DNA from: Gemmatimonadales bacterium
GTDB taxonomy: Bacteria; Gemmatimonadota; Gemmatimonadetes; Gemmatimonadales; GWC2-71-9
Length of the DNA: 64,000 nucleotides
Assembly: GCA_035710265.1 (NCBI GenBank)
Contig: DASTDR010000331.1
Location: 2,750 to 66,749, forward strand
Reading direction: 5' to 3'
Below, in pieces: positions 12,674 to 31,268 of the stretch (the stretch's first letter is position 1; the number at the start of each line of letters is the position of its first letter). The notes beneath the pieces were generated by a model that saw only the letters and a list, made by a program, of their open reading frames with translations, searched no databases and was not told where the DNA came from. Made by a program: the position numbers and the translations under genes.

Positions 12674-12773
12674 GCAGGAAACTTACGGTGGGGGACGAGG
12701 GTGGCGCTACGCATTATGACCTGTTGGGCGCGCACGCTTGCCCCCTCGAAGCGGTGCGCCATCTTCCCCTGAC

Positions 12774-13553
12774 ATGCGGACCTACCATGACCTGAAAGAC
12801 CCTGACCGCTCTGGTCTTCCCCAGCAGATCGCGGCGCAGCGGCAGCGGGTAAGCGATCGGTTGGCCGGCGTCCGGGAGATCGTGGCCGTCATGAGCGGGA
12901 AGGGCGGGGTGGGCAAGAGCTACGTGACGGCCCATCTGGCCCGGGCGCTGGCGCGGGGTGGGCAGGCGACGGGGGTGCTCGATGCCGACCTGAACGGGCC
13001 CACCATTCCCCGGATGCTCGACGTGCCCACCGCGGTGCGGGTCTCCGCCGGTCAGTGGGTCGAGCCCGTGCTCGGGGCCGATGGCGTTCGCTGCATCTCG
13101 ATGGCGCTGGTTCTGGAGAACGGCGCCCCGCTGTCGTTTCGGGGTCCGGTGGCCGAGTCCTTCGTGTGGCGCGGAGCGATGGAAGCCGCGGCGCTGCGGG
13201 AGTTTCTCGGGGACGTCGCCTGGGGGCCGCTCGACATCCTGCTGCTCGATCTCCCGCCCGGCGTGCAGCGCTACGTGGAGCTGTGCGACATCCTCGGCGC
13301 CGCGCCGCCGGTGCTTACGGTGACGATTCCGACGCCCGAGTCGCGCGACGCCGTGCGGCGCGCGATGCGTGCCGCGGTGGAACGGGGATCTCAGCTGCTC
13401 GGCATCGTCGACAACATGGTGGATGGCCACTACCAGGGAACCGCCGCGAACGATCTGGCGGCAGAGTTCGCGACGCAGGTGCTCGCGCGCGTGCCGTGGA
13501 ACCCCTCGCCCGAGGTCTGGGACGCGTTGGGAAAGCGCATGGCGCACTCATGA
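12774..13553 (+). CDS. mrp: Mrp/NBP35/ApbC-family Fe-S cluster carrier ATPase
   Basis: Deviant Walker A motif VMSGKGGVGKS. The ATG at 12774 is preferred over the track start at 12738. Its stop overlaps the next start (ATGA at 13550-13553). Confidence 0.88.
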   Translation: MRTYHDLKDPDRSGLPQQIAAQRQRVSDRLAGVREIVAVMSGKGGVGKSYVTAHLARALARGGQATGVLDADLNGPTIPRMLDVPTAVRVSAGQWVEPVLGADGVRCISMALVLENGAPLSFRGPVAESFVWRGAMEAAALREFLGDVAWGPLDILLLDLPPGVQRYVELCDILGAAPPVLTVTIPTPESRDAVRRAMRAAVERGSQLLGIVDNMVDGHYQGTAANDLAAEFATQVLARVPWNPSPEVWDALGKRMAHS

Positions 13554-13975
13554 AGTTCCTGTGCGTTGAATGCGACCAACAGATGGCATTCGGGGAGCGC
13601 CAGCTTCCCGGCGACGGCACGCTCGCCGCGACGTTCAAGTGTCCCAAGTGCGGGCGCGTGGTCGCGATGCTGACGAATCCGATGGAGACGCAGCTCGTGT
13701 CCTCACTCGGCGTGGAAATCGGCGGCCGCACCGTGCCGGCCGAGCCGTTTGAGATGATCAACTCGATGGTGACGACGGGCGGGCGGGCCGACGGGCTGAC
13801 GGGCGGCCCATCCTGGTCCGCGGAAGCGCAGGAGCGTCTGACGCGCGTCCCAAGCTTCGTGCGCGGCATGGTGAAGAAGATCTATGCGGACTACGCGAAG
13901 GAACGCGGCATCACCGAAATCACGCCCGCCGTCATGGACACGGCGCGTTCGGAGTTGGGGTTGGAGGGAATGTGA
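13550..13975 (+). CDS. zinc-ribbon protein with a C-terminal PCP_red-like (ChlB/BchB C-terminal-like) domain
   Basis: 141 aa. The zinc ribbon is CVEC...CPKC. The C-terminal segment SWSAEAQERLTRVPSFVRGMVKKIYADYAKERGITEITPAVMDTARSE matches the W..eAe..L..iPfFVRg.v....E.fA.e.G...It signature of the protochlorophyllide reductase B-subunit C-terminal domain. It is coupled on both sides by ATGA and GTGA overlaps. Confidence 0.8.
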   Translation: MKFLCVECDQQMAFGERQLPGDGTLAATFKCPKCGRVVAMLTNPMETQLVSSLGVEIGGRTVPAEPFEMINSMVTTGGRADGLTGGPSWSAEAQERLTRVPSFVRGMVKKIYADYAKERGITEITPAVMDTARSELGLEGM

Positions 13976-16900: not shown

Positions 16901-17742
16901 TGACGCACCGGGTCCGGGTGCCATTCAGTACCCAGGCAGATCCGTCATGGGGCATTCTCACCGAAGCATCGTTCGCGGGAGTCACCGAGGCGCTGACCGG
17001 TGACACGAAAAACACCTTGCTCACCTGGTCGGATCTCTTCTGCGTCGAGCCTCTGCCGGTCTACACGCAGCAATGCGGCGGAGCGGCACAGACGCCGGCC
17101 GCCCTACAGAACACGGCCACGCTCGGCGCGATCGCGATCCGGGACACGGCCTCGAGCTATGCCGGCACGGCCGCGGCCGGCTACACGGCAACCGGCAATG
17201 GCTTCATCTTCTACCTGAACGGCCACTTCTTCCTGATGCAGATGACATCGCTCCCCGCCGCGGGAACGGTCTGGAATGCCCGCTTCTATGCCGGCACCGT
17301 GACCGGCTCGGCGGCGCAGGGGAACTTCGCGTTCGTCCCGGCGGTACGGCCACCGAATGTGCCGGGCCTGCGCGCCCAGATCAGCTTCCAAGGGTCGGAG
17401 CTGAATGCGGTGGCCACGACCGATTCCATGCTCGACAAGATCCACACCGTGCCCGATCCCTTCTATTTGATGAGCGGATTCGAGGTGTCGCCCGACACGC
17501 TGCAGCTCAAGTTCGTGCATCTGCCCGCCATGGCGATCGTGCGCATCTATTCGCTGTACGGCATCCTCGTCAACGTGCTCACCAACAACGATCCCACCGG
17601 CGGCGGGGAGCTCACCTGGGACTTGAAGAGCCGCTCCGGCAAACAGGTCGCCTCGGGCGTGTACTTCTACCACGTCGAAACGATGGATCACAAACGCCGC
17701 GTTGGGCGGTTCACCATCGTGTCGGGCAAGCGCAATCAGTGA
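13972..17742 (+). CDS. very large secreted or cell-surface protein of unknown function with an FN3-like segment and a FlgD-Ig/T9SS-type C-terminal domain
   Basis: 1256 aa with a GTG start and a short signal peptide (KLLLMLLLVAQG). There is an FN3-like stretch (NQVTIVWQPS...EGYRIYRG...YYYAVTVYD). The C-terminal ~90 aa (..VRIYSLYGILVNVL...GELTWDLKSRSGKQVASGVYFYHVE..) are typical of FlgD-Ig or type-IX sorting tails. Confidence 0.85.
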   Translation: MKLLLMLLLVAQGKPAPPRRTALNLFAHPGAVLEANRVICGLDNVGQLCASFASSPIGGGAFWPKGTPDQYIFNSGLQMAALIPAGAGFAWAGDTIGAFFFDPRGDQSHGSPRSDVFNSRDSADAVNWPNGAVIRDATTFDARLIGRNFASEQDLWMRYWEGSPHLIGGRPHPMGVLVDQRLLAWNYPTGNQDVFYVVATLYNVTARTAGVYANPTIPPELQSEVAAAGREFQDSAEQAFALSIPDGGYALDSMYVQLGMDHDIAVFNHNYGTASVPFGIGIGYTGTFLPEVGWVLPPDPFGAPPFAAAPGLVGTTFLRSPAPFAMFTNTTGGGSFPDPVGVALLWRRMSGNLLPTDTQCTFADPAVARARHVCFLVQVQIDSRYQMSTGPFSLAPGEAKTLVMAYIFAPPLDTATAYVGGDLKPEIPFTGDSIALDTTKIRAIERVAGWRTQSDLSGNGAIEANEVIAARRSLLHKAQVAQAIVDAKFLMPQPPDTPEFFLIPGDNQVTIVWQPSASEASGDPYFALASDRSSALYDPNYRQFDVEGYRIYRGTDPRSLTLLAQFDHDNTSFVDYTGAVAYPGQCAPELGVVADCPAAFPPTPDTTVSVSQPVFRRIVQVPEGGRIVSSNGLVTTVTADTFPGHGFEPPFETGVPFAFTDSTAVNSFRYYYAVTVYDFNSIRSGPSSFESPRFTKLITPRASSGQETAGMVQAMRLLGGDGSTLDSAMSLPAIDPATGVFSGPMPPTDGLALEFTTFIPELLASGNITVTIDSIATGMAVLDVLPGAERPALYFLTSVSAGLTSHLTLPLQMRSPFSGFDEATAQLRFGAALVDSAQAARFGAAPVTQLAAQVTLRTPNALRLTNWGRGDANAIPPNSAFNGPRWWVGAGNENTANPNGGVCAPSTGFCANTSRVPNIARSAGAISGVTIFHVQSYNTIPNTPGRIVEAALATVTRAADFKVFWGTAGVVDSVIDLTHRVRVPFSTQADPSWGILTEASFAGVTEALTGDTKNTLLTWSDLFCVEPLPVYTQQCGGAAQTPAALQNTATLGAIAIRDTASSYAGTAAAGYTATGNGFIFYLNGHFFLMQMTSLPAAGTVWNARFYAGTVTGSAAQGNFAFVPAVRPPNVPGLRAQISFQGSELNAVATTDSMLDKIHTVPDPFYLMSGFEVSPDTLQLKFVHLPAMAIVRIYSLYGILVNVLTNNDPTGGGELTWDLKSRSGKQVASGVYFYHVETMDHKRRVGRFTIVSGKRNQ

Positions 17743-17990
17743 GCGACTTCGAAGAGCGCCACGTCGGCGATCTCCGGGTCCGGATCGATCGGACCCTGTG
17801 CGTCGGATTCGGCGACTGCATCACGGAAGCGGGCGAGGCGTTCGTCCTGGACGACGACGGCGTGGCGGTGTTCGTGCGGCCCGAGGCGGTCGAGCGCGAA
17901 CGATTGTTGCGCGCGTGCGACGCCTGCCCGGTGGATGCGATTACGGTTTGGAACGAAGCCGGGAGCCAAATCGTCCCGTCGACCTTGTGA
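17739..17990 (+). CDS. small single-cluster ferredoxin (CVGxGxC...CP type)
   Basis: 83 aa with a GTG start that overlaps the upstream stop (GTGA, 17739-17742). The motif is RTLCVGFGDCITEAGEAF...ACDACPVDAI. Confidence 0.8.
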   Translation: MSDFEERHVGDLRVRIDRTLCVGFGDCITEAGEAFVLDDDGVAVFVRPEAVERERLLRACDACPVDAITVWNEAGSQIVPSTL

Positions 17991-18104: not shown

Positions 18105-20078
18105 GTGTACCGCGAGATTTTCGTTCCCGTCGACAACTCGCAGCACTCCGACTGGGCCGTGGATCGGGCGATCGAGATGTGCCGGAAGACAGGCGGCCGG
18201 ATCACCGGTAACCATGTCTACGCCGCCCGCCTCCACGATGTGCGCTTCCGCCAGCTCGAGACCGGCCTCCCCGCCCAGTTCCAGACGCCCGAAGAAATCA
18301 AAAAACAGCGCAAAATCCACGACAAGCTGATCGAGAAAGGGCTGCAGCTGATCGCCGACAGCTTTCTGGATCAGCTCGGCAAGCGGTGTGAAGCGGCGGG
18401 CGTCGCGCTGACGCGGCAGCTGCTCGAAGGCATCAACTACGAAGAAATCGTCAACGAAGTGAACCGCGGCGCCGGCAGGCTGCCGGGATTGATCGGCTTC
18501 GATCCCAACCGCGCGGCCGGCTACGACGGCGGCGACAAGGTCCGCAGCGACGTCAAGCTCGGTGAAAACGGTCGGCTCGTCGCCGAAGACGAAGACGCGG
18601 CAGCACGGCTGGTCGGCTCGTCGGGACGGCAATACGACCTGCTCGCGCTCGGCGCGCACGGGCTGGGACGGCAGCAGTTCTCCCAGCTCGGTGGTGTAGT
18701 GGCTCGCGTATTGCGCGGCGTCGAGAAAGATGTGTTGATCGTCCGCGATCAGCAGCCGCTCACCGGCGGGCGCTTCATGGTCTGCGTCGACGGCTCGTCC
18801 TACAGCTACAAGGCCATGAACGCAGCGCTCGAGCTGGCCCACGAATTCGGCGCGTCGCTGTACGTGTGCAGCGCGTTCGACGTCGAATACCATCACGTCG
18901 TCTTCCACAACATCAAGGACGTGCTGTCGTACCAAGCCTCGAAGGTCTTCAAGTTCGAGGAGCAGGAAGAGCTGCACAACAACATCATCGACAAAGGCCT
19001 GCTCAAGCTGTGCCAGGCCAACTTGAAGCGCGCGGAAGTCATGGCGCAGCAGTTCCCCGACGTGCCGATCAAGACGCAGATCCTGATCGGCAAGCCGTTC
19101 CAGGTGATTCTCCAGTGGGCGGAGGAAATCAAGCCGACGCTCATGGTCATCGGCCGCCATGGGGCCCACCGCATCGAAGGGACCGATCTCGGCTCGCAGG
19201 CCGAAAACCTCCTGCGCGCCGCTCCCTGCTCCCTGCTCCTCGTCGGCGTTGTCGGTGTTCGTCCGGAAGACATTCCCTGGATCGAAGAAGATGGCCAGGC
19301 CGGGCTGCCGTGGGCGCCCGAGGCCGAAGTCCGGATCCTGCGCGTGCCGCCGTTCGCGCAGGGTATCGCGCGGCGCGCGGTCGAAGAATACGTGCTCGAG
19401 AAAGTGGGCAACGCCGGCCCTCCACCGACCGTGACCAACAAGTGGCTCGATGAAGCGATCCAGAAGCTGCTCCCGACGCACATGCAGCTCATCATGGGCA
19501 TCGGCAGCGCCGAGGAAATCGCCCTGGCGGAGGTGAAAGCCACGGAGCAGATGAAGGCGACGAAGGTCCAGGGTCACGATGCCGACCCCGAGCCGGCAAT
19601 GGCGGAAGTCGAGACCAAATGTCCAGTTACGGGCGCGGTCTCGAAGCGCCCCCGCGTGGCGAGCGACCCGATCGTCTGGACCGAAGAGGGGTGGGAGCGT
19701 CTCCAGCTCGTCCCGTTGATCGCGCGGCCGCTCGCGCGCAACACCGTCGAGCGGTTTGCGCGCAATCACGGCATCTGGCGCGTCACCACGGCCGTCATGG
19801 ACGACAACAAGCAGGCCATGATCGAGGCCGACGAGTTCGACATCGACACGATGATGGTGATGTTCACGGAGCTCCGCGCCAAACAGATCCGGGCTGAAGC
19901 CGAGGGACAGGATGCGCTCTCACCCGAGATGCGCGCGTTCATCGAGGAAGCAAAGGCGCAGGGCATCACGCGCTGTCCCATCCGCGACATTGAAGCCAAG
20001 ATGGAGAAGTGCCCGGTCGACATGAAGGCCGTGACGCCCGAAGAAGCGAAACGCGCAGTCGAGAAGCTGCTGCAGTGA
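18105..20078 (+). CDS. tandem universal-stress-protein domains fused to two PCP_red-like domains and a Cys-containing C-terminal tail
   Basis: 657 aa with a GTG start after GGGGAGG. It has two UspA-like domains (IFVPVDNSQHS...; FMVCVDGSSYS...LMVIGRHGAHRIEG..LGSQAENLL). The PCP_red-like copies are at about 19308-19470 (PWAPEAEVRILRVPPFAQGIARRAVEEYV) and 19674-19820 (VWTEEGWERLQLVPLIARPLARNTVERFARNHGIWRVT). The tail reads ..ITRCPIRDIEAKMEKCPV... Confidence 0.85.
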   Translation: MYREIFVPVDNSQHSDWAVDRAIEMCRKTGGRITGNHVYAARLHDVRFRQLETGLPAQFQTPEEIKKQRKIHDKLIEKGLQLIADSFLDQLGKRCEAAGVALTRQLLEGINYEEIVNEVNRGAGRLPGLIGFDPNRAAGYDGGDKVRSDVKLGENGRLVAEDEDAAARLVGSSGRQYDLLALGAHGLGRQQFSQLGGVVARVLRGVEKDVLIVRDQQPLTGGRFMVCVDGSSYSYKAMNAALELAHEFGASLYVCSAFDVEYHHVVFHNIKDVLSYQASKVFKFEEQEELHNNIIDKGLLKLCQANLKRAEVMAQQFPDVPIKTQILIGKPFQVILQWAEEIKPTLMVIGRHGAHRIEGTDLGSQAENLLRAAPCSLLLVGVVGVRPEDIPWIEEDGQAGLPWAPEAEVRILRVPPFAQGIARRAVEEYVLEKVGNAGPPPTVTNKWLDEAIQKLLPTHMQLIMGIGSAEEIALAEVKATEQMKATKVQGHDADPEPAMAEVETKCPVTGAVSKRPRVASDPIVWTEEGWERLQLVPLIARPLARNTVERFARNHGIWRVTTAVMDDNKQAMIEADEFDIDTMMVMFTELRAKQIRAEAEGQDALSPEMRAFIEEAKAQGITRCPIRDIEAKMEKCPVDMKAVTPEEAKRAVEKLLQ

Positions 20079-21346
20079 GCTTCGTCCCACACGTCGTCGC
20101 ATGGAATCTCACGCGGCGCTGTAACCTGGAGTGCGCCCACTGCTATATCGCGGCGGGGCCGCATGAGAGTGCGACCTCCGAACTCGACACGTCCGAGTGC
20201 CTGCGCATCGTGGACGAGCTGCTCGCCGTGAACCCCGCGCCGATGTTGATCCTCTCCGGCGGCGAGCCGCTGCTGCGCCAGGATCTTACCGAGATCGCCG
20301 CGTACGCGTCGCAGCGCGGTGCGACGGTCGTGGTGGGCACGAACGGCACGCTGCTCTCGGACGAGCGCATCGCCGGGCTCAAGGCGGCGGGCGTGCGCGG
20401 CGTCGCGGTCTCAATCGATTCGCTGCGCCCGACGTACCACGACAACTTCCGGCACGGCAAAGGGTCGCTCGACGACACGGTCAGGGCACTGGGTCGCCTG
20501 CGCGCGCAGCAGCTCGATTTCGTCATCCAGACGACAGCGACCAAAGGCAATCGCGCCGAGCTCGAGCGCATCGCGCAATGGTCGGCGGAGCTGGGCGCCG
20601 TCGCGTTCAACTGCTATTTCCTGGTCGCGACGGGACGGGGCGCCGGCATGTCGGATCTGTCGCCCGCCGAGTACGAAGCGGTGCTCGCCGATCTCGCCAG
20701 ATGGCAACGGGATTACCGCGGCACCATGATGGTGCGCGCCAAGTGCGCGCCGCATTTCATGCGTCATGTCCATCTCCTGGATCCTGACTCCCAGATCCTG
20801 AATTACCAGACCCGCTGCCCGTGCGGCACTCAGTACTGCCGGATCACGCCCGACGGCAAGCTCACGCCGTGCCCGTATCTGCCCGAGGTGGCGGGCGATC
20901 TGCGCACGCACAGCTTCGGGGAGATCTGGCGCTCGTCCCCGCTGTTCCAGCGGATCCGCGAGGGGACACTGGGCGGCAAGTGCGGCCGATGCGAGTACCA
21001 GAAGCTGTGCGGTGGCTGCCGCGCGCGCGCGTTCGCGCTCGAGGGCGACGTGCTCGCCGCGGATCCATCATGCAGTTACGAGCCGCAAGGGCTGGAGGTG
21101 ATTCAGCCGAAGAGCGTGAGCTACGGCAGCGAGTTCACGCCTGCGCTGACCTGGTCGGCGGCGGCGCGCACGCGGCTCGAGCGGATCCCGTCGTTCGTGC
21201 GCGGGGTCGTCGCCAAACGCGTCGAAGACTGGGCACGCGAGCGCGGCGTGCAGGAAATCACGCCGGAGCTGCTCGGGGAAATCCGCAACGCAATGCCGAT
21301 CGATTTCTCGAAACGCAAACCATTCTTTGTGTCCGATGACCGATAA
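20075..21346 (+). CDS. radical SAM / SPASM-domain enzyme (NirJ/AhbC/AhbD-like) with a C-terminal PCP_red-like domain
   Basis: The GTG start overlaps the upstream stop (GTGA). The radical SAM cluster motif is NLTRRCNLECAHCY, with ILSGGEPLLRQD. The SPASM Cys-rich region is ..RCPCG..C..GKCGRCEYQKLCGGCRARAF... The C-terminal segment TWSAAARTRLERIPSFVRGVVAKRVEDWARERGVQEITPELL lies at 21149-21298. Confidence 0.88.
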   Translation: MSFVPHVVAWNLTRRCNLECAHCYIAAGPHESATSELDTSECLRIVDELLAVNPAPMLILSGGEPLLRQDLTEIAAYASQRGATVVVGTNGTLLSDERIAGLKAAGVRGVAVSIDSLRPTYHDNFRHGKGSLDDTVRALGRLRAQQLDFVIQTTATKGNRAELERIAQWSAELGAVAFNCYFLVATGRGAGMSDLSPAEYEAVLADLARWQRDYRGTMMVRAKCAPHFMRHVHLLDPDSQILNYQTRCPCGTQYCRITPDGKLTPCPYLPEVAGDLRTHSFGEIWRSSPLFQRIREGTLGGKCGRCEYQKLCGGCRARAFALEGDVLAADPSCSYEPQGLEVIQPKSVSYGSEFTPALTWSAAARTRLERIPSFVRGVVAKRVEDWARERGVQEITPELLGEIRNAMPIDFSKRKPFFVSDDR

Positions 21347-21349
21347 CCG

Positions 21350-23059
21350 ATGACCGAGCATCTGCTCCTTCAGGCGGCCGCCGACACCGTGGGCGCCTAC
21401 CGCGACTTCCCGGTGATCGGCAGCCGGGCCGCGATCTGGATCGCGGCGGAAATCCACCTGATGTTCGCGGCGTTCGTGCTGGGCGTGCCGATGTTCGCGG
21501 TGGTCGCGGAGGCGATCGGCATCTTCGGCAAGGACCAGCGCTACGATCGCCTGTCCAAGGAATTCACCCGGCTGCTGCTGATCGCCTACAGCGCGACGGC
21601 CATCTGGGGGGCGGTGCTCGTATTCCTGCTGTCCACCCTCTACCCCAAGTTCTGGGCCTATCTGACGGCCATCTTCGGAACATCGATGTGGGTGTACGTC
21701 TCGATCTTTTTCTTCGAGTCGTTCACGCTGTACCTGTATTACTACGGCTGGGACCGCTGGAAGTATGGGACATCCAAGATCGTGCATTGGTGCCTCGGCA
21801 TTCTGCTGAACGTGTGGGGCACCATCGTCATGTTCATCGCGGACGGCTGGCTCACGTACATGATGTCGCCGCCGCGCGACATCACGCCCACGACCGCGCC
21901 GGCAAGTGTCCGCTTCTGGGAAGCGTTCATGAACCACACGTGGATGCCGATCAACATCCACCGCCTCATCGGCAACGTGGTGTTCGGCGGCGCGATCGTG
22001 GGCGCGTACGCGAGTTACCGCTTCCTCGCGTCCCGCAGCGAGGAAGAGCGCGCGCACTACGACTGGATGGGCTACGTCGGCAACTTCATCGCGATTTCGG
22101 CGCTGATCGTGCTGCCGTTCGCCGGCTACTGGCTGGGGCGTGAGATCTACATGTACGACCAGTCGATGGGCATTACGATGATGGGCGGCTTCATGAGCTG
22201 GCTGTGGGTCATTCAAGCCTTCCTCATCGCGGTGCTGTTCCTGGCCGGCAACTACTATCTGTGGGTCGGGATGGGCCGTATTCCCGGCGCCGAGCGGTTC
22301 CGGCCGTACACGAAGTGGCTGCTCGCCGTGCTCGTAATCGGCGCGATCGTGTGGGGCACGCCGCACACCATGATCGCCGACTCGCGCGAGCTCGCGGCGA
22401 TGGGCGGCTCGCACCATCCCTTCCTCGGTGTCCTGGGCGTCATGAGCGCCAAGAACACCGCGGTGAACCTGATGATCCTCGCGACGTTCCTCTCCTTCCT
22501 CCTGTACCGGCGCGCCAACATCCGCCCCGTCGTGCCGTGGGCCCAGACCGGGACGCGGATTCAGGGCGCGATGTTCGCGATCGCGGCCGCGATCGTGCTG
22601 TTCTACGGCATCCGCGGCTACTTCGTCGAAGCGATCGTGCGCATCGGCTATTCGGTTTATCAAGTCGGCGCCGTGCTCGCGTGCATCGTGTTCGTCACCG
22701 TGATCGACGTGCTCATGGCGCGCGGCGCGCAGTCGCTGGGGGCGATCCAATGGGGCAAGATGCCGCCGCGCTCGCAGTACGCGCTCTTCATCCTGGCCGT
22801 CACCTTCACCTGGCTCATGGGCCTGATGGGGTTCGCGCGCAGCGGGATTCGCCAGCACTGGCACGTGTGGCAAGTCCTGCCGGACACGTCGCAGTACGCG
22901 GCCACGCCCGCGCTCGGGTATGCGTCGATCATGATCAGCGCCTGCGTGCTGATCTTCCTGGCGCTGGTCGGATTCATCTTCTGGCTCGGAGGGCTCGCCG
23001 AGAAGTCCACTTTCGTGCCCGCGGTCAGCACCGTGGAGGCCCCGCATGTGGGCCATTAA
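21350..23059 (+). CDS. cytochrome bd-like membrane protein (CydA superfamily, no CydB partner)
   Basis: 569 aa and polytopic. CydA hallmarks are a TM1 His (AAEIHLMFAAF), FFFESFTLYLYYYGW, NVWGTIVMFIADGWLTYMMSPP and a TM5 His (PINIHRLIGNVVFGG). It has extra C-terminal helices. No cydB or cydX follows. Confidence 0.85.
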   Translation: MTEHLLLQAAADTVGAYRDFPVIGSRAAIWIAAEIHLMFAAFVLGVPMFAVVAEAIGIFGKDQRYDRLSKEFTRLLLIAYSATAIWGAVLVFLLSTLYPKFWAYLTAIFGTSMWVYVSIFFFESFTLYLYYYGWDRWKYGTSKIVHWCLGILLNVWGTIVMFIADGWLTYMMSPPRDITPTTAPASVRFWEAFMNHTWMPINIHRLIGNVVFGGAIVGAYASYRFLASRSEEERAHYDWMGYVGNFIAISALIVLPFAGYWLGREIYMYDQSMGITMMGGFMSWLWVIQAFLIAVLFLAGNYYLWVGMGRIPGAERFRPYTKWLLAVLVIGAIVWGTPHTMIADSRELAAMGGSHHPFLGVLGVMSAKNTAVNLMILATFLSFLLYRRANIRPVVPWAQTGTRIQGAMFAIAAAIVLFYGIRGYFVEAIVRIGYSVYQVGAVLACIVFVTVIDVLMARGAQSLGAIQWGKMPPRSQYALFILAVTFTWLMGLMGFARSGIRQHWHVWQVLPDTSQYAATPALGYASIMISACVLIFLALVGFIFWLGGLAEKSTFVPAVSTVEAPHVGH

Positions 23060-23843
23060 CCTGCGGATCTTCGGCGTCGTGCTCGGCACGCTGGCGCTCT
23101 ATACACTGATCGCGAACAAGATCCCGCAGATGCAGTCGGAGGTGCCGCGCGCGCTCGCGCTCGGCGCCAACGTCACGCCGGAGCAGCTCGTGGCTGCCGG
23201 GGAGCAGCTCTATCAGGGCGCGGGCGGCTGCACCGCCTGTCACGGCCTCGGCACGCGCGCACCCAATCTCCTGACCGATGAAAAAGGACAGGGCCAGATC
23301 GGCGCGCGCTGTGCCAACCGAGAGCGCGGCAAGAATTGCAAGACGTACCTCTATGAGTCGCTGGCCAGCCCGGGGACGTTCGTGGTGACCGGTTATGAGC
23401 CGATCATGCCGGACATGAGCCGCACCTTGTCTCCGCAGCAGCTCTGGGCGCTGGTCGCGTTCCTCGAGTCGCAGGGCGGGACCGTGGATGTGCAGGCCTC
23501 CGATATCCCCGCGGCAGCCTCGAGCGATGGTGGAGGGTCGGGAGGTTCTGGAGGTTCTCGAGGAATTGCCGGAGGCAGTACGGACGCCATGGCGATCATT
23601 CGGGCCGCGGGCTGTCTCGGCTGCCACAAGGTGGGCACCGAGGGCGGCGCGATCGGGCCGGACCTGACACGGATCGGCGGCCGGCTCTCGCCGTCGCTCA
23701 TGCGGGAGGCGATCCTCGCGCCCGACGCGCGCATCGCGCGCGGGTATGAGCAGTTCAAAGGCGTGATGCCCAAAACCTTCGGCGATCAGCTGACGGCGGC
23801 GCAGCTCGAGTCGCTGGTGCAATTCCTCGTGAGTCGTCGATGA
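23046..23843 (+). CDS. membrane-anchored dihaem c-type cytochrome
   Basis: 265 aa with an N-terminal TM helix (IFGVVLGTLALYTLIA). It has two CxxCH motifs (CTACH and CLGCH) separated by a Gly/Ser linker. It overlaps the upstream gene by 14 nt. Confidence 0.88.
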   Translation: MWAINLRIFGVVLGTLALYTLIANKIPQMQSEVPRALALGANVTPEQLVAAGEQLYQGAGGCTACHGLGTRAPNLLTDEKGQGQIGARCANRERGKNCKTYLYESLASPGTFVVTGYEPIMPDMSRTLSPQQLWALVAFLESQGGTVDVQASDIPAAASSDGGGSGGSGGSRGIAGGSTDAMAIIRAAGCLGCHKVGTEGGAIGPDLTRIGGRLSPSLMREAILAPDARIARGYEQFKGVMPKTFGDQLTAAQLESLVQFLVSRR

Positions 23844-24619
23844 GGAACTACATCCGTCATCCGTTCTGGCAGGCGGTCGGGCTGCTCGCGATCGCGTACC
23901 TGGTCATCGCATTCCTCATCCCGCTGCTGCCCGGCAGCGCCGTCGTGCCCAAGAGCGTCGTGCTGCAGTACATGGCGACGGTGCTCGTCGGCGTGCTGAT
24001 CTGGGTGAGCGACGACGAAGCCCGCTGGACGACGTTCAAAGAGCCGCTCCAGGATGTGCTCGTGCAGCCGCGGCTCAAGGTCGTGCGGACCGCGCTGCTC
24101 GCGGCGGTCACGCTGATCGTCGGCTGCCTCACCTACGGCCAGGTGCGCGCCAGCGTGACCGCGCCGCCGTCGTTGCGCTCGATCCACCCCGCGCCGCCCT
24201 CGCAGATCACGTTCCGCGGTAAGGCCATCACGCTGGTGGGACTCGAGAACCCGCTGCGCCGCCAAGGGGGGGGAGATCTCGCGACGCACGTCGCCGAAGG
24301 ACAACGGATCTACTACAAGAACTGCGTGCCCTGCCACGGTGATCATCTCGATGGGCAGGGACCGTATGCTCCAGGATTGAATCCGCTCCCCGCCAACTTC
24401 CAGGACAATGGTACGATCGCGCAGCTCACCGAGAGCTTCGTGTTCTGGCGGGTCGCGAAGGGTGGGCCGGGGCTGCCGCGCGAAGGCGCGCCCTGGAATT
24501 CGGCGATGCCGGCGTGGGAGGATTTCCTCACCGAGAACGAAATCTGGGCGGTCGTGCTCTTCCTGTACGAACAAACGGGCTGGAAGCCGAGGACGTGGGA
24601 AGCGGCCAGTCATGATTAG
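23840..24619 (+). CDS. polytopic membrane monohaem c-type cytochrome
   Basis: 259 aa with about three N-terminal TM helices followed by YYKNCVPCHGDH. It is joined to the upstream gene by an ATGA overlap. Confidence 0.85.
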   Translation: MRNYIRHPFWQAVGLLAIAYLVIAFLIPLLPGSAVVPKSVVLQYMATVLVGVLIWVSDDEARWTTFKEPLQDVLVQPRLKVVRTALLAAVTLIVGCLTYGQVRASVTAPPSLRSIHPAPPSQITFRGKAITLVGLENPLRRQGGGDLATHVAEGQRIYYKNCVPCHGDHLDGQGPYAPGLNPLPANFQDNGTIAQLTESFVFWRVAKGGPGLPREGAPWNSAMPAWEDFLTENEIWAVVLFLYEQTGWKPRTWEAASHD

Positions 24620-26144
24620 CGCGCTGCTCTTGGTGCTGGTCCTGACGCAGGACACGACGGCAGGGAAGGTCGTGTACCAGAAGTGGTGCGCGGGCTGCCA
24701 CGGCGATCAGGGTGCCGGCGACGGCGTCGCGGCCAGGTACATGATCCCGCCGCCGCGCGACTTCACGGGCGCGATCTACCAGATCCGCTCGACCGCAAGC
24801 GGCAACCTGCCCACGGATGCCGATCTGATGCGCGCTATAGATGAAGGGCTGCATGGCACCGCCATGCCGGGATGGAGGAACGCGCTGTCCGATCGCGAAC
24901 GGCGTGACGTGGTGGCCTACATCAAGTCGTTCTCGACGTTCTTTGCCGACACGACGTTGCGGCCCCAGGCGCTCGAGCTCGGCGGAGAGCCGAGCGGCGG
25001 CACCGGTGACGAAGCGCTCAGGGTGGGACGGCAATTCTACGATTCCATCGGCTGTGCCAAATGTCATGGCGATCTGGGCCGCGGCGACGGCCCCTCGTCT
25101 CCGACGCTGAAGGACGACGCCGGGCATCCGATCTTTGCGGCCGATCTGCATCAGAACTGGCTGTTCAACGGCGGCGGCACCGCAAGCGACATTTATCATC
25201 GCCTGCGGACCGGCCTCGACGGCACGCCGATGCCGTCGTTCAGCGATCTGCTCGAGCAAAAGTTCCTCACGGAGACGGAGTTGTGGCGCGTCGCGCAGTA
25301 CGTGCGCAGCCTCTCCCCCGCTGAGCCGCCGGCGGTGCGGGATGTGATCCGCGCGCCGCTGGTCGACCGCGCGTTGCCCCATGCGCCTGACGATTCGGCC
25401 TGGGCATCGGTCGACGCATACTGGTTCCCGCTCGTGGGTCAGGTGATCCGCAAAAGCCGCTGGTTCGCACCGGCGGTCACCGGAGTCTGGGTGAAGGCGG
25501 TGCACACCGCGGATTCCCTCGCCCTGCACATCGCCTGGGACGACCGCTCGGAGAGTCCCGACACGGCGTGGCTCGACCATGTGGGCCGCGTAATGGCCGC
25601 CCTGGAAAGCGATGAAGCGGATCAGCCTGGTCTTTGGCCTGATCAGATCGCCGTCCAGTTCCCGGTGACGATTCCCACGGGCATGGAGCGTCCCTACTTC
25701 CTGATGGGCAGCTCCAGTGCTCCCGTCTACCAGTGGCGCTGGACCAGTACCGCTCGAACCGCGGCCGTTGCCGGCCTGGCACGCGGGCTGGAGCGTTTCG
25801 ATCCGATATCCAATGCCGGGGTCGGCGCGCAGGCCGTCTATGACCGCGGTCAGTGGCGCGTCGTCTTCACCCGCGCACTTGCTTCGTCCGATACCGCAAC
25901 ACAGCTTCCGTTCCGGACCGGCCGTGCCATTCCCGTGGCATTCTTCGCCTGGGATGGGTCCAACGGAGAGCACGGCACGCGGATGGCCGTCAGTACCTGG
26001 TATTTCCTTGCACTCGAAGAGCCCGTGCCGGCCCGTGTGTTCATCTCGCCGGTGCTCGCTATGATGCTCACGCTCGGCCTGGGCATGCTGGTCGTCTGGC
26101 GTGCGCAACAAAAGACTTCATTCCGTGGGAGGAGGCAGCAATGA
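24612..26144 (+). CDS. dihaem c-type cytochrome fused to an EB_dh/DOMON-like haem-binding domain, with a C-terminal TM anchor
   Basis: The internal ATG at 24612 gives the signal MISALLLVLVLTQ. The CxxCH motifs are CAGCH and CAKCH. The C-terminal half (..WFPLVGQ..VKAVHTADSLALHIAWDD..DQIAVQFPV..PYFLMG..VYQWRW..QWRVVFTRAL..VAFFAWDGSNGE..) resembles the ethylbenzene-dehydrogenase gamma-type haem domain. The terminal TM helix is VFISPVLAMMLTLGLGMLVVW. Confidence 0.8.
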   Translation: MISALLLVLVLTQDTTAGKVVYQKWCAGCHGDQGAGDGVAARYMIPPPRDFTGAIYQIRSTASGNLPTDADLMRAIDEGLHGTAMPGWRNALSDRERRDVVAYIKSFSTFFADTTLRPQALELGGEPSGGTGDEALRVGRQFYDSIGCAKCHGDLGRGDGPSSPTLKDDAGHPIFAADLHQNWLFNGGGTASDIYHRLRTGLDGTPMPSFSDLLEQKFLTETELWRVAQYVRSLSPAEPPAVRDVIRAPLVDRALPHAPDDSAWASVDAYWFPLVGQVIRKSRWFAPAVTGVWVKAVHTADSLALHIAWDDRSESPDTAWLDHVGRVMAALESDEADQPGLWPDQIAVQFPVTIPTGMERPYFLMGSSSAPVYQWRWTSTARTAAVAGLARGLERFDPISNAGVGAQAVYDRGQWRVVFTRALASSDTATQLPFRTGRAIPVAFFAWDGSNGEHGTRMAVSTWYFLALEEPVPARVFISPVLAMMLTLGLGMLVVWRAQQKTSFRGRRQQ

Positions 26145-26920
26145 AAGGCAGAATCTTCACCGTGGTGAGCGCGATGTTCGTGCTCACGGTGTGCAGCAAA
26201 GGTGATCAAGGCAACGCGGCACCGGCTCGTTCGGAGGACACCCCTCCCGCGGCGCCGGCGCCCGCGAACGGCGCAGCCGGTGGCACGATTGCCGGCAAGA
26301 TCAAGTTTACGGGCACCGCGCCGCGGAACCCGACGATCGACATGAGCGAGGAAGCCGCCTGCAAGGGCAAGCACAAGACCACGCCGACCGAGGAGAATGT
26401 GGTCGCGGGTCCGGCCAACGCGCTCGCCAACGTGTTCGTGTACGTGAAGTCGGGCGTCGCCGCCGGCCAGACATTCCCGGCCCCATCGGCGCCGGTGGTG
26501 CTGGATCAGGATGGGTGCCGCTACCATCCGCACGTGCTCGGCATCCGGGTCGGCCAGACGCTCGAGATCAGGAATTCCGACCCCGTCCTGCACAATATCA
26601 AAGCCGTCGCCAAGAAGAACCGCCCGTTCAACGTCAGCCAGCCGAGCGCCGGAATGAAGACGACCCGGACGTTCAGTGCGCCCGAGGTGATGGTGAATCT
26701 CGAGTGCAACGTGCACGGCTGGATGAAAGCGTACGTCGGGGTGCGGCCTGATCCGTTCTTCGCGGTGTCGGGCCAGGACGGCAGCTTCAAGATCGAAGGA
26801 CTGCCGCCCGGAACCTACGAGATCGAGGCGTGGCACGAGAAGTTCGGCACGCAGACCGCGACCGTGACGATCGCGGGCACCGAGAGCAAGACGGCCAACA
26901 TCACCTTCGCCGCGCGCTAG
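26141..26920 (+). CDS. lipoprotein with a type-1 copper (cupredoxin) site and a carboxypeptidase-regulatory-like beta-sandwich
   Basis: The lipobox is FVLTVCSKG. Candidate Cu ligands are the His in DPVLHNIK and C-x2-H-x2-M in LECNVHGWM, which is amicyanin-like spacing. The C-terminal segment is GSFKIEGLPPGTYEIEAWHEKFG. It is joined to the upstream gene by an ATGA overlap. Confidence 0.8.
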   Translation: MKGRIFTVVSAMFVLTVCSKGDQGNAAPARSEDTPPAAPAPANGAAGGTIAGKIKFTGTAPRNPTIDMSEEAACKGKHKTTPTEENVVAGPANALANVFVYVKSGVAAGQTFPAPSAPVVLDQDGCRYHPHVLGIRVGQTLEIRNSDPVLHNIKAVAKKNRPFNVSQPSAGMKTTRTFSAPEVMVNLECNVHGWMKAYVGVRPDPFFAVSGQDGSFKIEGLPPGTYEIEAWHEKFGTQTATVTIAGTESKTANITFAAR

Positions 26921-26937
26921 AGCGCGAGGAGATCTCG

Positions 26938-27609
26938 ATGCGTTGGTGGCTCCCCGACGCAGGATCGACGTTCGCCGGGCCGATCGACACGATGTTCACG
27001 GTGATTCTGATTCTCACCGGCATTGCGCTGGTCATCGTGGAGGTCGGCGTGGTGGCCTTCGTGATTCGCTACCGCGCGCGCCCGGGCCGGAGGGCGTTCT
27101 ACACGCACGGCTCGACGCGCGCGGAAGTGATTTGGACGGCGATCCCCGCCGTGACCATGATCGTGCTCGGTCTCGTGAGCAATCACTACTGGGTCATGAT
27201 GAAGGACAAGAAGAGCGTGCCGCCCAACGCGATTCCGCTGGGCGTGCACGGCAAGCAGTTCGAATGGATCATGTCCTACCCCGGGGCGGACGGGAAGCTC
27301 GGCTCGGACGACGACTTCACCGTGCGCAACCAGCTTCACATCCCCGTCAACCAGCCGGTCGCGATCCAGCTCACCGCGGAAGATGTGATTCACTCGTTCT
27401 TCGTGCCCGAGTTCCGCGTGAAGCAGGATGCGGTTCCCGGCATGAACATCACCGCCTGGTTCCAGGCGACCAAGACGGGTGAATTCGAGATCGGCTGCGC
27501 CGAGCTGTGCGGGATGGGACACTACAAGATGCGGGCGCGAGTGTTCGTGCATACGCCCGAGGAGTTCACGGCCTGGATGACCCAACAAGCCGCCGGAGGA
27601 GCCGAATGA
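26938..27609 (+). CDS. coxB: cytochrome c oxidase subunit II (CuA; no fused cytochrome c)
   Basis: The ATG at 26938 follows GAGGAG. It has two TM helices and the CuA motif HSFFVPEFRVKQDAVPGM...GCAELCGMGHYKM. Confidence 0.93.
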   Translation: MRWWLPDAGSTFAGPIDTMFTVILILTGIALVIVEVGVVAFVIRYRARPGRRAFYTHGSTRAEVIWTAIPAVTMIVLGLVSNHYWVMMKDKKSVPPNAIPLGVHGKQFEWIMSYPGADGKLGSDDDFTVRNQLHIPVNQPVAIQLTAEDVIHSFFVPEFRVKQDAVPGMNITAWFQATKTGEFEIGCAELCGMGHYKMRARVFVHTPEEFTAWMTQQAAGGAE

Positions 27610-29396
27610 CGAGCGTCGCGCACGCGAAGCACGATGCCCACGGAGGCTCGGGGGGGGGCCACCACGCGCCCATGAGCTTCTGGCAGAAATACGTTTTCTC
27701 CACCGATCACAAGATCATCGGCATCCAGTTCCTGTTCGTCAGCTTGTTCTTCCTGCTGGTCGGAGGAATCCTGGCGATGCAGATCCGCTGGCAGCTCGGC
27801 TTTCCGGGCAAGCCGATGCCGGGCGGCGGGATCCTGCCGGAAACGATGGCGCCGGGCGGCGTGATCCTGCCCGAGTACTACATCCAGCTCGTCACGATGC
27901 ACGGCACGTTCATGGTGTTCTTCGCCATCATGCCGCTGCTCGTCGGGGTCTACGCCAACTTCCTGATTCCGCTGAAGCTGGGTGCGCACGATATGGCGTT
28001 CCCGCGCATCAACATGTGGTCGTTCTGGCTCGCGCTGCTCGCGGGCCTGATCATGCTCGCGGGGTTTTTCGTGCCCGACGGCGCGCCGCGCGCCGGCTGG
28101 ACGATGTACACGCCGCTCTCGGCCCGTCCCGACCTCTCGGGCGCGACGCTGAGCCAGCAGCTCTGGTGCGTGTCGATCGTCGTGTTGGGCCTCTCGTCGG
28201 TCATGGGCTCGGTCAATTACATCACGACCGTCATCAATCACCGCGCGCCCGGCATGACCTGGTTCCGCATGCCGCTCTCGGTGTGGGCGCTGTTCATTAC
28301 CGCGATCCTGGGCGTGCTCGCGCTCCCGGTGCTCCAGGGCGCCGCGATCATGCTGCTGTTCGACCAGTCGATCGGCACCCACTTCTTCGATCCGACCGCC
28401 GGCGGCCAGGCGCTGCTGTGGCAGCACCTGTTCTGGTTCTTCGGCCATCCCGAGGTCTACATCCTGATCCTGCCCGCGATGGGCATGGTGTCGGACATCA
28501 TCGCCAACGGCAGTCGCAAACCGATCTTCGGCTATCACTCGATGGTTTTTGCGATCATCGGGATCGCGTTCCTGGGCTGGATCGTGTGGGGTCACCACAT
28601 GTTCATGAGCGGCATGAACCCGACGCTCGGGTCGACGTTCATGGTCTCGACCCTGCTCATCGCGGTACCGTCCGCCGTCAAGGTGTTCAACTGGATGGGC
28701 ACGATGTGGCGTGGAAACCTGCATTTCCACGTGCCGATGCTGAACGCGATCGGGTTCGTGTCGATGTTCACGATCGGCGGGCTGTCCGGCATCTTCATGG
28801 CCGCGACACCGGTGGACATTCCGATCCACGACACGCAGTTCATCGTCGCGCACATCCATTACGTGCTGTTCGGCGGCTCGCTGTTCGCGTTGTTCGCGGC
28901 GATCACGTTCTGGTATCCCAAGATGTTCGGCCGGGTGATGAACGAGCCGCTGGGCAAGGTGCACTTCTGGCTGACGATGATCGCCTACAATCTGACGTTT
29001 TTCCCGATGCACATCATTGGCATGGGCGGCCAGATGCGGCGGATCTACGATCCCACGATCTACGACTTCCTGAAGCCGCAGCAGCCGATGAACGAGTTCA
29101 TCTCCTACAGCGCGTTCGCCCTCTTCGCCGTGCAGTTCATCTTCGCGTTCAACTTCCTCTGGAGCTTGAAGGCGGGGAAAAAGGCCGAGCCGAATCCGTG
29201 GAACGACAACGGCCTGGAGTGGTCGCTGCCCAATCCCGCGCCCCACGGCAACTGGGCGCCGGCGACCCCGAACGTGTACCGCGGGCCGTACGAATTCAGC
29301 GCGCCCGAAGCGCCGGACACCGACTTCCTGCCGCAGACCAGGAAGCTGCCGACCGATCGCGATCCCGTACCCGCGACTCTCTCGGGAGGACACTGA
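27606..29396 (+). CDS. coxA: cytochrome c oxidase subunit I (haem-copper oxidase, A-type)
   Basis: 596 aa. Motifs include STDHKIIGIQFLF, WFFGHPEVYILILP and HHMF. It is joined to coxB by an ATGA overlap. Confidence 0.96.
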   Translation: MTSVAHAKHDAHGGSGGGHHAPMSFWQKYVFSTDHKIIGIQFLFVSLFFLLVGGILAMQIRWQLGFPGKPMPGGGILPETMAPGGVILPEYYIQLVTMHGTFMVFFAIMPLLVGVYANFLIPLKLGAHDMAFPRINMWSFWLALLAGLIMLAGFFVPDGAPRAGWTMYTPLSARPDLSGATLSQQLWCVSIVVLGLSSVMGSVNYITTVINHRAPGMTWFRMPLSVWALFITAILGVLALPVLQGAAIMLLFDQSIGTHFFDPTAGGQALLWQHLFWFFGHPEVYILILPAMGMVSDIIANGSRKPIFGYHSMVFAIIGIAFLGWIVWGHHMFMSGMNPTLGSTFMVSTLLIAVPSAVKVFNWMGTMWRGNLHFHVPMLNAIGFVSMFTIGGLSGIFMAATPVDIPIHDTQFIVAHIHYVLFGGSLFALFAAITFWYPKMFGRVMNEPLGKVHFWLTMIAYNLTFFPMHIIGMGGQMRRIYDPTIYDFLKPQQPMNEFISYSAFALFAVQFIFAFNFLWSLKAGKKAEPNPWNDNGLEWSLPNPAPHGNWAPATPNVYRGPYEFSAPEAPDTDFLPQTRKLPTDRDPVPATLSGGH

Positions 29397-30420: not shown

Positions 30421-31268
30421 CGTCGTCGCTGCTCGAGCTGACGAAGCCGCGCATCACGCAGCTGGTGTTGCTCACCGCCGCGACCGGGTTCTACCTCGGC
30501 GCGAACGGGCGAGTGGACATGCTGCTGCTCGCCAACACGTTGCTCGGCACCGCCCTCGTCGCGGCGGGGACGAACGCGTGGAACCAGATCCGCGAGCGCG
30601 ACGTGGACGCGCGGATGGCGCGCACGCGCCGCCGCCCGTTGCCGTCCGGCCGGCTCACGCTCCAGGCCGCGACGTGGTTCGCGTCCGGGATTACGGCGGC
30701 GGGCGTCGGATACCTGGCGGCCACCGTGAATGTGGTGACGGCGCTGCTCGCCGCACTCACGTTCGCGACCTATGTCCTGTTGTATACGCCGCTCAAGCGC
30801 AGGTCGACGTTGAACACGCTGGTGGGGGCGGTACCCGGTGCGCTGCCGATCGTCGGCGGCTGGACCGCCGCCGGTGGCCACCTGGGCGCGGGCGTCGCGG
30901 CATTGTTCTGGATCCTGTTCCTGTGGCAGCTGCCCCACTTCCTCGCACTCGCCTGGTTGTACCGCGAAGACTATCGGGCCGGCGGCCTGCGGATGCTCAG
31001 CGTAGACGATGAAACCGGCGCCGATACGGGGCGCATGGCGATGCTGTACGCCGTCGCGCTCCTGCCGATCAGCCTGATGCCGACGCTGCTCGGTGTCACG
31101 GGGCCGTTGTACTTCTTCGGCGCGTTGGCGCTCGGCGTATTGTACGTCGCGGCGGGAACGGGACTGCTCGTCGGCGCAACGCCCCCGCGCGCCTGGCGCC
31201 TTTTTTTCGTTTCGATTCTGTATCTGCCTGCGCTGCTCACCTTGATGGTGCTCGACAAAGCGGCGTAA
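30414..31268 (+). CDS. ctaB: protohaem IX farnesyltransferase (haem O synthase); start probably non-canonical
   Basis: The protein is UbiA-family (..LELTKPRITQLVLLTAATG.., ..NQIRERDVDARMARTRRRPLPSG.., ..LWQLPHFLALAW..). No ATG, GTG or TTG lies between the coxIV stop region and the conserved LTKPRI motif. In-frame CTG codons are at 30414 and 30429. The track start at 29484 runs through coxC and coxD. Confidence 0.85.
   Translation: MVASSLLELTKPRITQLVLLTAATGFYLGANGRVDMLLLANTLLGTALVAAGTNAWNQIRERDVDARMARTRRRPLPSGRLTLQAATWFASGITAAGVGYLAATVNVVTALLAALTFATYVLLYTPLKRRSTLNTLVGAVPGALPIVGGWTAAGGHLGAGVAALFWILFLWQLPHFLALAWLYREDYRAGGLRMLSVDDETGADTGRMAMLYAVALLPISLMPTLLGVTGPLYFFGALALGVLYVAAGTGLLVGATPPRAWRLFFVSILYLPALLTLMVLDKAA

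Follow-up and report, generated by a model that had tools for sequence, protein, structure and literature searches.

A cytochrome bd-like module, very probably of the OR-N2 type, encoded with a cupredoxin-like lipoprotein and an A-family haem-copper oxidase in a Gemmatimonadales genome

A 64-kb stretch of DNA (the window) from the metagenome-assembled genome of a Gemmatimonadales soil bacterium, with a GC content of about 65%, encodes a 569-residue membrane protein of the CydA superfamily in one string with three c-type cytochromes, a lipoprotein and a haem-copper oxidase. The question raised by this locus is which respiratory reaction a CydA-like protein could carry out with such partners and no CydB. 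An earlier note, made from the DNA letters, had described the protein as an orphan subunit of a candidate uncharacterised complex. This novelty does not stand, since the OR-N2 group (Murali et al. 2021), the clusters of Nitrospira, Nitrospina and Kuenenia, and TO_1 have the same partners. The locus is very probably an OR-N2-type “cytochrome bd-like” respiratory module, an architecture already described bioinformatically, and it adds a member to a biochemically uncharacterised family. As for its function, we tentatively favour a bd-type oxidase fed by cytochrome c and cupredoxin, for which we infer both the electron direction and the substrate.

The family is very common and is routinely mislabelled “cytochrome ubiquinol oxidase subunit I” in public annotation. 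Its function bears on the identity of the Nitrospira terminal oxidase, on uphill electron transport in nitrite and manganese oxidisers, and on how cytochrome c is reduced in the numerous Gemmatimonadota in which cytochrome c oxidases are encoded and neither a bc1 complex nor alternative complex III (ACIII) can be recognised.

The CydA-like protein and its family

The CydA-like gene (21350..23059, + strand) encodes a membrane haem protein with 13 predicted transmembrane (TM) helices. The motifs EIHLMF (with H36), FFFESF (E123), DGWLTYMMSPP and INIHRL (H204), pointed out earlier, are all present, and H36, E123 and H204 are invariant or nearly so among relatives. Homology to CydA comprises about the first five helices: the Pfam match to Cyt_bd_oxida_I (PF01654) is limited to residues 25-270 (E 1.3e-22), solved CydA chains align in the N-terminal half only, up to residues 140-268, and the likeness ends near residue 270, before the Q-loop. 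The NCBIfam CydA equivalog gave 31 bits, compared with a cut-off of 968. An AlphaFold2 model built on 39 sequences (predicted local distance difference test, pLDDT, 78; predicted TM-score, pTM, 0.80) shows 13 long helices, in agreement with the additional C-terminal helices that had been proposed. Its ten best Foldseek matches in the PDB were all CydA (E 1e-8 to 1e-5, TM-score 0.40-0.45), followed by CydB chains; no OR-N-type structure was among the matches in the PDB copy searched. A hydropathy scan returned 14 segments above threshold, several of them overlapping, which corresponds to about 11 separate hydrophobic stretches, the norm for OR-N2 being 14 helices.

Conservation was followed in 24 diverse full-length representatives and in a closer subfamily composed of Gemmatimonadales and Nitrospirota. 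At least 22 of the 24 representatives keep H36, E54, Y98, Y130, W134, H146, W198 and H204 (22 for H36 and H204), and likewise R205, Y303, W305, T337, P338, K368 and R497. In the closer subfamily E123, H339, H356, M365, N369, S498 and H505 are also invariant. H339, H356 and H505 fall in low-confidence periplasmic loops of the AlphaFold2 model, and periplasmic loops beside the haem b site show strong conservation, at E265, M278-G280, H339, E347, H356 and K368.

Murali, Gennis and Hemp (2021) divided the bd superfamily into qOR, OR-C and OR-N, and their table by phylum seems to mark OR-N as occurring in Gemmatimonadota. The residue list given for OR-N2 (Murali et al. 2021, Supplementary Table 6) is matched at every position by the CydA-like protein. 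In terms of the E. coli residues, H19 corresponds to H36, E99 (Tyr in OR-N2) to Y116, E107 (kept in OR-N2) to E123, H126 to H146, H186 to H204, M393 (M/N in OR-N2) to M365 and N369, W441 to W504, and E445 (Ser/Ala in OR-N2) to S498, while the Y-x-Y motif is found as Y130 and Y132. An assignment to OR-N1 was rejected because OR-N1 has Gly at the E107 position, where E123 stands here. Operons of OR-N2 contain several cytochromes c and an ebdC homologue, and no second CydA-like gene (Murali et al. 2021, supplement); the locus likewise holds several cytochromes c and an EbdC-like domain, with no second CydA-like gene. The electron donor of OR-N2 was described as unclear, maybe cytochrome c (Murali et al. 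2021).

Full-length identity to the bd-like proteins of Nitrospirota, Manganitrophaceae and Nitrospinaceae is 36-51%. The representatives at 36-39% come from clusters named Nitrospira/Manganitrophaceae, Nitrospirota and Nitrospinaceae, the contig of the Nitrospinaceae relative starting inside the CydA-like gene. A cluster of a bd-like oxidase, alt-NxrC and two cytochromes c is known in Nitrospira, Nitrospina and Kuenenia (Lucker 2010/2013; Mundinger 2019). The bd-like protein has its Q-loop replaced and lacks the quinol residues (Lucker 2013), and the absence of the quinol site was likewise described by Murali and others (Murali 2021). Nitrospira are mostly without haem-copper oxidases and transcribe their bd-like clusters strongly; in N. 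moscoviensis, bd-like_3, alt_NxrC_2 and two cytochromes c are among the 40 most transcribed genes (Mundinger 2019). TO_1 of Ca. Manganitrophus, composed of a bd-like protein, two cytochromes c and a periplasmic cytochrome b, reaches the 98th expression percentile (Yu et al. 2022). The gene table of Kuenenia lists kustd1712 as cydA-like, 1711 as dihaem, 1710 as monohaem and 1709 as dihaem cytochrome, and kustd1706 as uspA. A Nitrospirota clade (P0142/P0404/P0325) was considered as an orthologous cluster and set aside, its members being orphan bd-like copies without cytochrome partners. The searchable literature gave no match on bd-like proteins in Gemmatimonadota. The earlier statement that CydB-less bd-like proteins are biochemically uncharacterised is right: the family is known from genomics and was never purified.

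Haem and copper partners in a conserved gene order

The genes lie in a + strand string (18105-31268) in which neighbours around the module overlap or sit at most 18 nt apart; the overlaps from the CydA-like gene through the three cytochromes to the lipoprotein are 14, 4, 8 and 4 nt. A scan of the window found no terminator-like site between the genes of the string: all such matches lie inside genes, and they are not commoner (13) than in shuffled sequence (9.8 +/- 3.0). The three membrane-anchored cytochromes with five CxxCH motifs were confirmed by Pfam cytochrome c matches (E 1e-9 to 1e-21) and hydrophobic anchors. They are a dihaem cytochrome with an N-terminal anchor (CTACH, CLGCH; 23046..23843, + strand), a monohaem cytochrome with about three N-terminal TM helices (CVPCH; 23840..24619, +), and an “alt-NxrC”-like dihaem cytochrome (CAGCH, CAKCH; 24612..26144, +), extended in the same polypeptide by an EB_dh/DOMON-type domain and, at the C-terminus, a TM helix. 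The features had been located well, and two starts were corrected, to 24612 for the third cytochrome and to 26141 for the lipoprotein.

For the third cytochrome, 63 of 63 homologues keep the Cys and His of every CxxCH motif as well as the distal Met at the second haem. Its dihaem part (24612-25330) matches chain B of PDB 6H5L, a cytochrome of Kuenenia stuttgartiensis that we take to be the dihaem partner Kustc0457, with an E-value of 2.8e-48, and this likeness is a further link between the bd-like module and anammox cytochromes; in the literature 6H5L is cited as a Kuenenia hydroxylamine oxidoreductase structure. The EB_dh fusion, also proposed earlier, was recovered by Pfam (E 1.6e-16), by TIGR03477 (E 3.8e-26) and by EbdC (2IVF_C, E 1.5e-7). 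The haem b ligands of EbdC are Met108 and Lys201. Met108 aligns with M365 of the third cytochrome, a position with Met in 43/63 homologues and Gly in 15/63, and Lys201 aligns with M458, where Met is found in 21/63 and Gly in 26/63. Binding of haem b by the domain is plausible from these alignments and not assured, because only one of the two EbdC ligands is kept. The second hypothesis of the earlier note, catalysis at the EB_dh haem, is not supported, because the ligands vary across the family of 63 homologues. In a subset of Gemmatimonadota (L018, L020-L022, L027, L029, L039, L041, L043-L046, L048, L058 and L067) Gly occupies both ligand positions, that of the EbdC Met lying in the motif FLGG, and the EB_dh domain of this subset may lack haem.

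The next gene (26141..26920, +) encodes a probable lipoprotein that has a site resembling those of type-1 copper proteins and ends in a CarboxypepD_reg beta-sandwich. Its residues H151, C189, H192 and M195 are kept in 56 of 56 homologues, C189, H192 and M195 having the amicyanin-like spacing C-x2-H-x2-M, and C74 and C126 are invariant as well. Among type-1 copper proteins the lipoprotein weakly matched 5FC9 (E 0.18) and 3PLY (E 1), and Pfam gave no cupredoxin match for it. The conserved ligands make the predicted blue copper protein, as first proposed, probable.

A haem-copper oxidase follows, also on the + strand. CoxB (26938..27609) carries the CuA motif CAELCGMGHYKM, scores 169 bits with TIGR02866 (cut-off 147.7 bits) and has no cytochrome c domain. 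The other genes were assigned through their orthologues in a 94%-identical relative (L082) and, for the subunits, through synteny: CoxA (27606..29396; Pfam COX1), CoxC (29398-30117; COX3), CoxD (30127-30420; COX4_pro) and a UbiA-family haem O synthase (30465..31268; PF01040), whose start is not certain and could be situated about 40 nt further upstream. The 64-kb window contains no haem A synthase, and for this reason “A-family haem-copper oxidase” is preferable to the “aa3 oxidase” of the earlier note, which had otherwise placed the oxidase correctly. Among the scanned open reading frames (ORFs) of the window, no CydB, CydX, Rieske/cytochrome b complex, ACIII or molybdoenzyme/nitrite oxidoreductase (NXR) was found; the absence of cydB and cydX after the CydA-like gene, and of bc1 and ACIII from the window, had already been noted. 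With no molybdopterin oxidoreductase among these ORFs, no linkage to nxrABC was seen.

To follow the gene order, one genome per GTDB species was searched, which gave at least 596 species-representative genomes with a CydA-like relative; the family forms 1211 protein clusters at 50% identity, with E-values up to 0.001. Closed assemblies that carry the module include OZ241869.1, OY282356.1 and NZ_CBDBZT010000003.1. The window proteins were then compared by tblastn with the best 80 loci of these genomes, which span all Gemmatimonadota orders, NC10/Methylomirabilota, Rokubacteria, Chloroflexi, Myxococcota, Rhodothermales and Acidobacteriota. The synteny expected from the earlier note was found: the three cytochromes stand downstream of the CydA-like gene at 39 of the 40 informative Gemmatimonadota loci and at all 17 of the other phyla (56/57 in total). 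The lipoprotein, CoxB and CoxA come next at 37/38 and 12/16 loci, respectively, and the Usp and radical SAM genes lie directly upstream at 40/40 Gemmatimonadota loci and 1/20 elsewhere. None of the best 80 loci has cydB directly downstream. In Rokubacteria (L060) and Chloroflexi (L062), the operon starts at the CydA-like gene, because the genes upstream of it are unrelated and divergent.

Further arrangements were observed at single loci. In Nitrospirota (L085, 8851-18320) the string begins with a CarboxypepD_reg protein, a cytochrome c, a first bd-like protein and another cytochrome c, and continues with Rieske, cytochrome b, a small ORF, a second bd-like protein that is 51% identical to that of the window, and genes resembling the first dihaem (26% identity) and the monohaem (44%) cytochromes; the orthologous module is tied there to a bc-type complex and in the window to a haem-copper oxidase. 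At the NC10 CSP1-5 locus (L053, 494-16342) the monohaem and dihaem-EB_dh cytochromes seem to form one 727-aa ORF, followed by an extra 122-aa cytochrome c, and genes for a pyrroloquinoline quinone (PQQ)-dependent dehydrogenase and a solute-binding protein are found about 7.6 kb upstream. A Myxococcota locus (L063, 3376-15483) has two complete modules, each with its lipoprotein, back to back on opposite strands, and no haem-copper oxidase within 10 kb of them. Within 10 kb of the module, several Gemmatimonadota loci have not just the syntenic oxidase but another CoxA/CoxC/CoxD set that is less closely related, at about 35-45% identity (L018, 1-1639; L022, 77-3691; L041, 29-2628; L019, 15290-16126).

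Oxidase, quinol oxidation or electron hub

In the reading that we favour, the core is a 13-14-helix CydA homologue in which H204 and M365, the His/Met ligands of the low-spin haem b, are retained. So are H36, the counterpart of His19 as ligand to the haem at the active site, and, with E123 and H146, part of the path for protons from the cytoplasm; CydB, the quinol-binding residues of the Q-loop and the Glu445 ligand have been lost. The core is predicted to assemble with the three anchored c-type cytochromes, which would bring five c haems and, on one of them, the EB_dh/DOMON domain, and to be co-transcribed with the cupredoxin lipoprotein and the A-family cytochrome c oxidase. The c haems and the cupredoxin would take up electrons on the periplasmic side and hand them to the His/Met haem b, and O2 would be reduced at the H36 haem with protons from the cytoplasm. 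The result would be a cytochrome c-dependent, non-pumping bd-type oxidase, working in parallel to the haem-copper oxidase with the same donors.

This oxidase reading is supported by the retention of H36, H146 and H204 in 22-23 of the 24 representatives, by the invariance of E123, M365 and K368 in the closer subfamily, and by the loss of the quinol site, the homology to CydA ending before the Q-loop. Systems that reduce cytochrome c adjoin the module elsewhere, namely Rieske/cytochrome b in L085, the PQQ dehydrogenase in L053, and NXR in published genomes (Lucker 2013; Mundinger 2019). A terminal-oxidase role for the membrane subunit is also the mainstream published reading, and the need of Nitrospira for a cytochrome c oxidase is counted on the same side, together with the strong transcription of its bd-like clusters and the high expression of TO_1. 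Other observations weigh against it. Ser and Tyr stand in the places of Glu445 and Glu99, which leaves the canonical three-haem O2 site incomplete; obligately anaerobic anammox bacteria (Kuenenia) have the module; and two terminal oxidases in one operon are unusual, as the module would duplicate the co-encoded oxidase. Published counts for 326 Gemmatimonadota genomes give coxA in 82%, petB in 23%, ACIII in <10%, cydA in 53% and cydB in 29% (Zheng et al.), and with petB and ACIII this low relative to coxA there is no obvious cytochrome c reducer. No member of the family has been purified, and the PDB copy searched holds no OR-N structure.

The same counts, with cydA far above cydB, speak for an alternative that is possible though rather doubtful, in which the module is a quinol:cytochrome c/cupredoxin oxidoreductase, a third kind of “complex III” feeding the co-encoded oxidase. 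It corresponds to the first hypothesis of the earlier note; both of its hypotheses are already found in the bd-like literature. Menaquinol would be oxidised at a new periplasm-side site beside the His/Met haem b, where the conserved periplasmic loops lie, and electrons would reach CuA by way of the five c haems and then the cupredoxin, probably within a supercomplex. The gene order fits this path: CydA-like protein, dihaem, monohaem and dihaem-EB_dh cytochromes, cupredoxin, CoxB and CoxA follow one another at the 37/38 Gemmatimonadota and 12/16 other loci, in genes that overlap or are at most 18 nt apart with no intergenic terminator-like site. Operons running from the CydA-like gene through the cupredoxin to the CuA oxidase occur in at least three phyla, those of L060 and L062 contain no Rieske, cytochrome b or ACIII gene, and CoxB lacks a cytochrome c domain of its own. 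The layout parallels the ACIII-caa3 operons and the Sulfolobus SoxM complex, whose bc-like part is connected with the oxidase by a blue copper protein. However, no quinol site is recognisable, the region of that site in CydA being missing; the conserved H36 ligand and the N-side proton-path residues E123 and H146 would be left without a role; and in Nitrospirota a Rieske/cytochrome b pair stands immediately ahead of the 51%-identical orthologue. Because ACIII is poorly detected through KEGG, the apparent lack of a complex III may itself be an artefact of annotation. Among the genomes listed in the accessible part of Zheng et al., petB is lacking in 13 of 16 cydA-only genomes compared with 77% overall, which is no enrichment, and the papers on Palauibacterales and Gaopeijiales contain no statement on complex III.

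An improbable reading makes the module a membrane anchor and electron hub for periplasmic dehydrogenases, able to pass electrons backwards, from cytochrome c to quinone, with the EB_dh domain docking a soluble molybdoenzyme or another donor. Such a role was proposed for the NXR-linked clusters of Nitrospira, Nitrospina and Kuenenia (Lucker 2013; Mundinger 2019), and it agrees with the homology of the EB_dh domain to the gamma subunits of type II dimethyl sulfoxide (DMSO)-reductase enzymes and with the PQQ dehydrogenase near the module in L053. Yet the 64-kb window has no molybdoenzyme or other obvious periplasmic dehydrogenase, and an NXR membrane anchor was rejected for this locus, there being no molybdopterin oxidoreductase among the scanned ORFs; the Met ligand of the EB_dh domain is lost in the Gemmatimonadota subset; uphill transfer from cytochrome c to menaquinone would proceed without an evident coupling device in the protein set; and a heterotroph with an adjacent oxidase would have little need of reverse electron flow. 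The public label, an ordinary subunit I of a CydAB-type quinol oxidase, has the Pfam PF01654 match in its favour and is nevertheless rejected: no cydB was found among the scanned ORFs of the window or directly downstream in the best 80 related loci, the homology ends at residues 262-270 and leaves the Q-loop (E. coli K252, E257) uncovered, the equivalog score is 31 bits where 968 are required, and E99 and E445 are replaced.

Upstream cassette, neighbouring genes and known systems

The module is preceded by a cassette on the + strand (12738-21346; L082, 5164-10001). It begins with an Mrp/NUBPL-type P-loop ATPase of the Fe-S carrier type (12738..13553; Pfam ParA/NUBPL, E 1.3e-44) and a small protein with a PCP_red domain (13550..13975; PF08369, E 1.8e-15; orthologue in L082), PCP_red being the C-terminal domain of protochlorophyllide reductase subunit B. 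A small ferredoxin (17739..17990; orthologue in L082 with Fer4_15/Fer4_13) is followed by tandem Usp domains fused to PCP_red domains (18105..20078; Usp E 3.9e-36, PCP_red E 8.4e-17) and by a radical SAM/SPASM enzyme with a C-terminal PCP_red domain (20075..21346; Pfam Radical_SAM, SPASM and PCP_red), whose gene ends 3 nt ahead of the CydA-like gene. This enzyme is of the AhbD/NirJ2 type, with 303 bits for the NCBIfam AhbD model and 300 bits for NirJ2, both below the 500-bit cut-offs, and its C-terminus matches ChlB (2XDQ_B). Between the PCP_red and ferredoxin genes lies a 1256-aa ORF (13972-17742) of normal codon bias that overlaps its neighbours by 4 nt at each end and has no Pfam or PDB match. 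It is absent at that position in L082, where the PCP_red and ferredoxin genes abut, and in L001, also 94% identical, the gap between the neighbouring matches is too small to hold it.

Similar genes accompany the module in other phyla. The NC10 locus L053 (4628-9194) has a Usp-rubredoxin-like-PCP_red protein, a radical SAM-SPASM-PCP_red protein and Mrp/NUBPL, and in another NC10 locus (L059) tblastn matched the Usp and radical SAM proteins upstream of the module. In Rhodothermaceae (L079, 14869-21175) the cassette, including Mrp/NUBPL, is downstream of the module, and in Myxococcota (L063, 15516-16427) a PCP_red protein stands after the lipoprotein. No mention of PCP_red and radical SAM proteins in association with the module was found in the searchable literature. 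Downstream of the haem O synthase, the window encodes a HemQ-Rieske fusion (31623-32699, +; both Pfam domains in the L082 gene), that is, a HemQ/chlorite-dismutase-like coproheme decarboxylase with a C-terminal Rieske [2Fe-2S] domain, matched over its full length in related Gemmatimonadales (e.g. L001, L005, L012-L016), and then hemE, hemH and a hemY-like gene (32743-35649). That the radical SAM gene is present merely due to these nearby hem genes was rejected, as it also occurs with the module in L053 and L079, where queries with hemQ, hemE and hemH gave no match inside the locus. These associations suggest that the cassette is a dedicated O2-independent step that makes or delivers haem, probably for the module itself.

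If a broader and still more doubtful proposal were true, most Gemmatimonadota, Rokubacteria/Methylomirabilota and some Chloroflexi would have in this module the quinol:cytochrome c (cupredoxin) oxidoreductase that they seem to lack, a third unrelated complex III wired through the five c haems and the cupredoxin into a supercomplex with the oxidase, its haem being made or tailored by the AhbD/NirJ-like radical SAM enzyme with PCP_red partners. What the locus adds to the family is the conserved order of module, cupredoxin and CoxBA together with the tetrapyrrole-type radical SAM cassette, which hints at a possible dedicated cofactor pathway. The strict operon with a cupredoxin and an A-family oxidase offers a heterotrophic, non-nitrifier setting for the question of oxidase or complex III, in a phylum that includes cultivated members, not necessarily carriers of the operon.

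Among known systems, OR-N2, the Nitrospira bd-like clusters and TO_1 resemble the module in the signature residues and in having neither CydB nor a second CydA-like partner; the number of TM helices is about 14 there and 13 in the AlphaFold2 model here. They also share the downstream dihaem and monohaem cytochromes c, the TM-anchored ebdC/alt-NxrC-like dihaem protein, and cupredoxin-like proteins nearby. Here, in contrast, the host belongs to Gemmatimonadales, the 64-kb window holds no NXR or Rieske/cytochrome b complex, the module shares one operon with an A-family haem-copper oxidase, and the radical SAM/PCP_red/Usp cassette precedes it. Kuenenia stuttgartiensis kustd1706-1712 has the same adjacent content of cydA-like, dihaem, monohaem and dihaem genes, with a Usp gene in the cluster, but lies inside the nitrite oxidoreductase cluster of an anaerobe and, unlike the window, has no haem-copper oxidase. 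Canonical CydAB(X) shares with the CydA-like protein the fold of the first helices and the equivalents of His19, His186/Met393, Glu107 and His126, whereas the latter has no CydB or CydX and no Q-loop quinol site, carries Tyr for Glu99 and Ser for Glu445, and possesses extra helices and c-type cytochromes as partners. The EbdC/NxrC gamma subunits of the type II DMSO-reductase family belong to the same EB_dh fold family, with the equivalent of the Met ligand present here; in the window the domain instead forms one protein with a dihaem cytochrome c and a TM anchor, its Lys ligand is replaced, and no alpha or beta subunits are nearby. The ACIII-caa3 and Sulfolobus SoxM systems offer a purely functional analogy. 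The present module has no homology to ActB, ActC, ActF or Rieske/cytochrome b, none of the ActB/ActC-type or Rieske/cytochrome b Pfam families occurring in its operon, and quinol oxidation by its bd-like protein is hypothetical; the likeness is that a single operon encodes a haem-copper oxidase together with multihaem or copper carriers and a membrane module on the quinol side.

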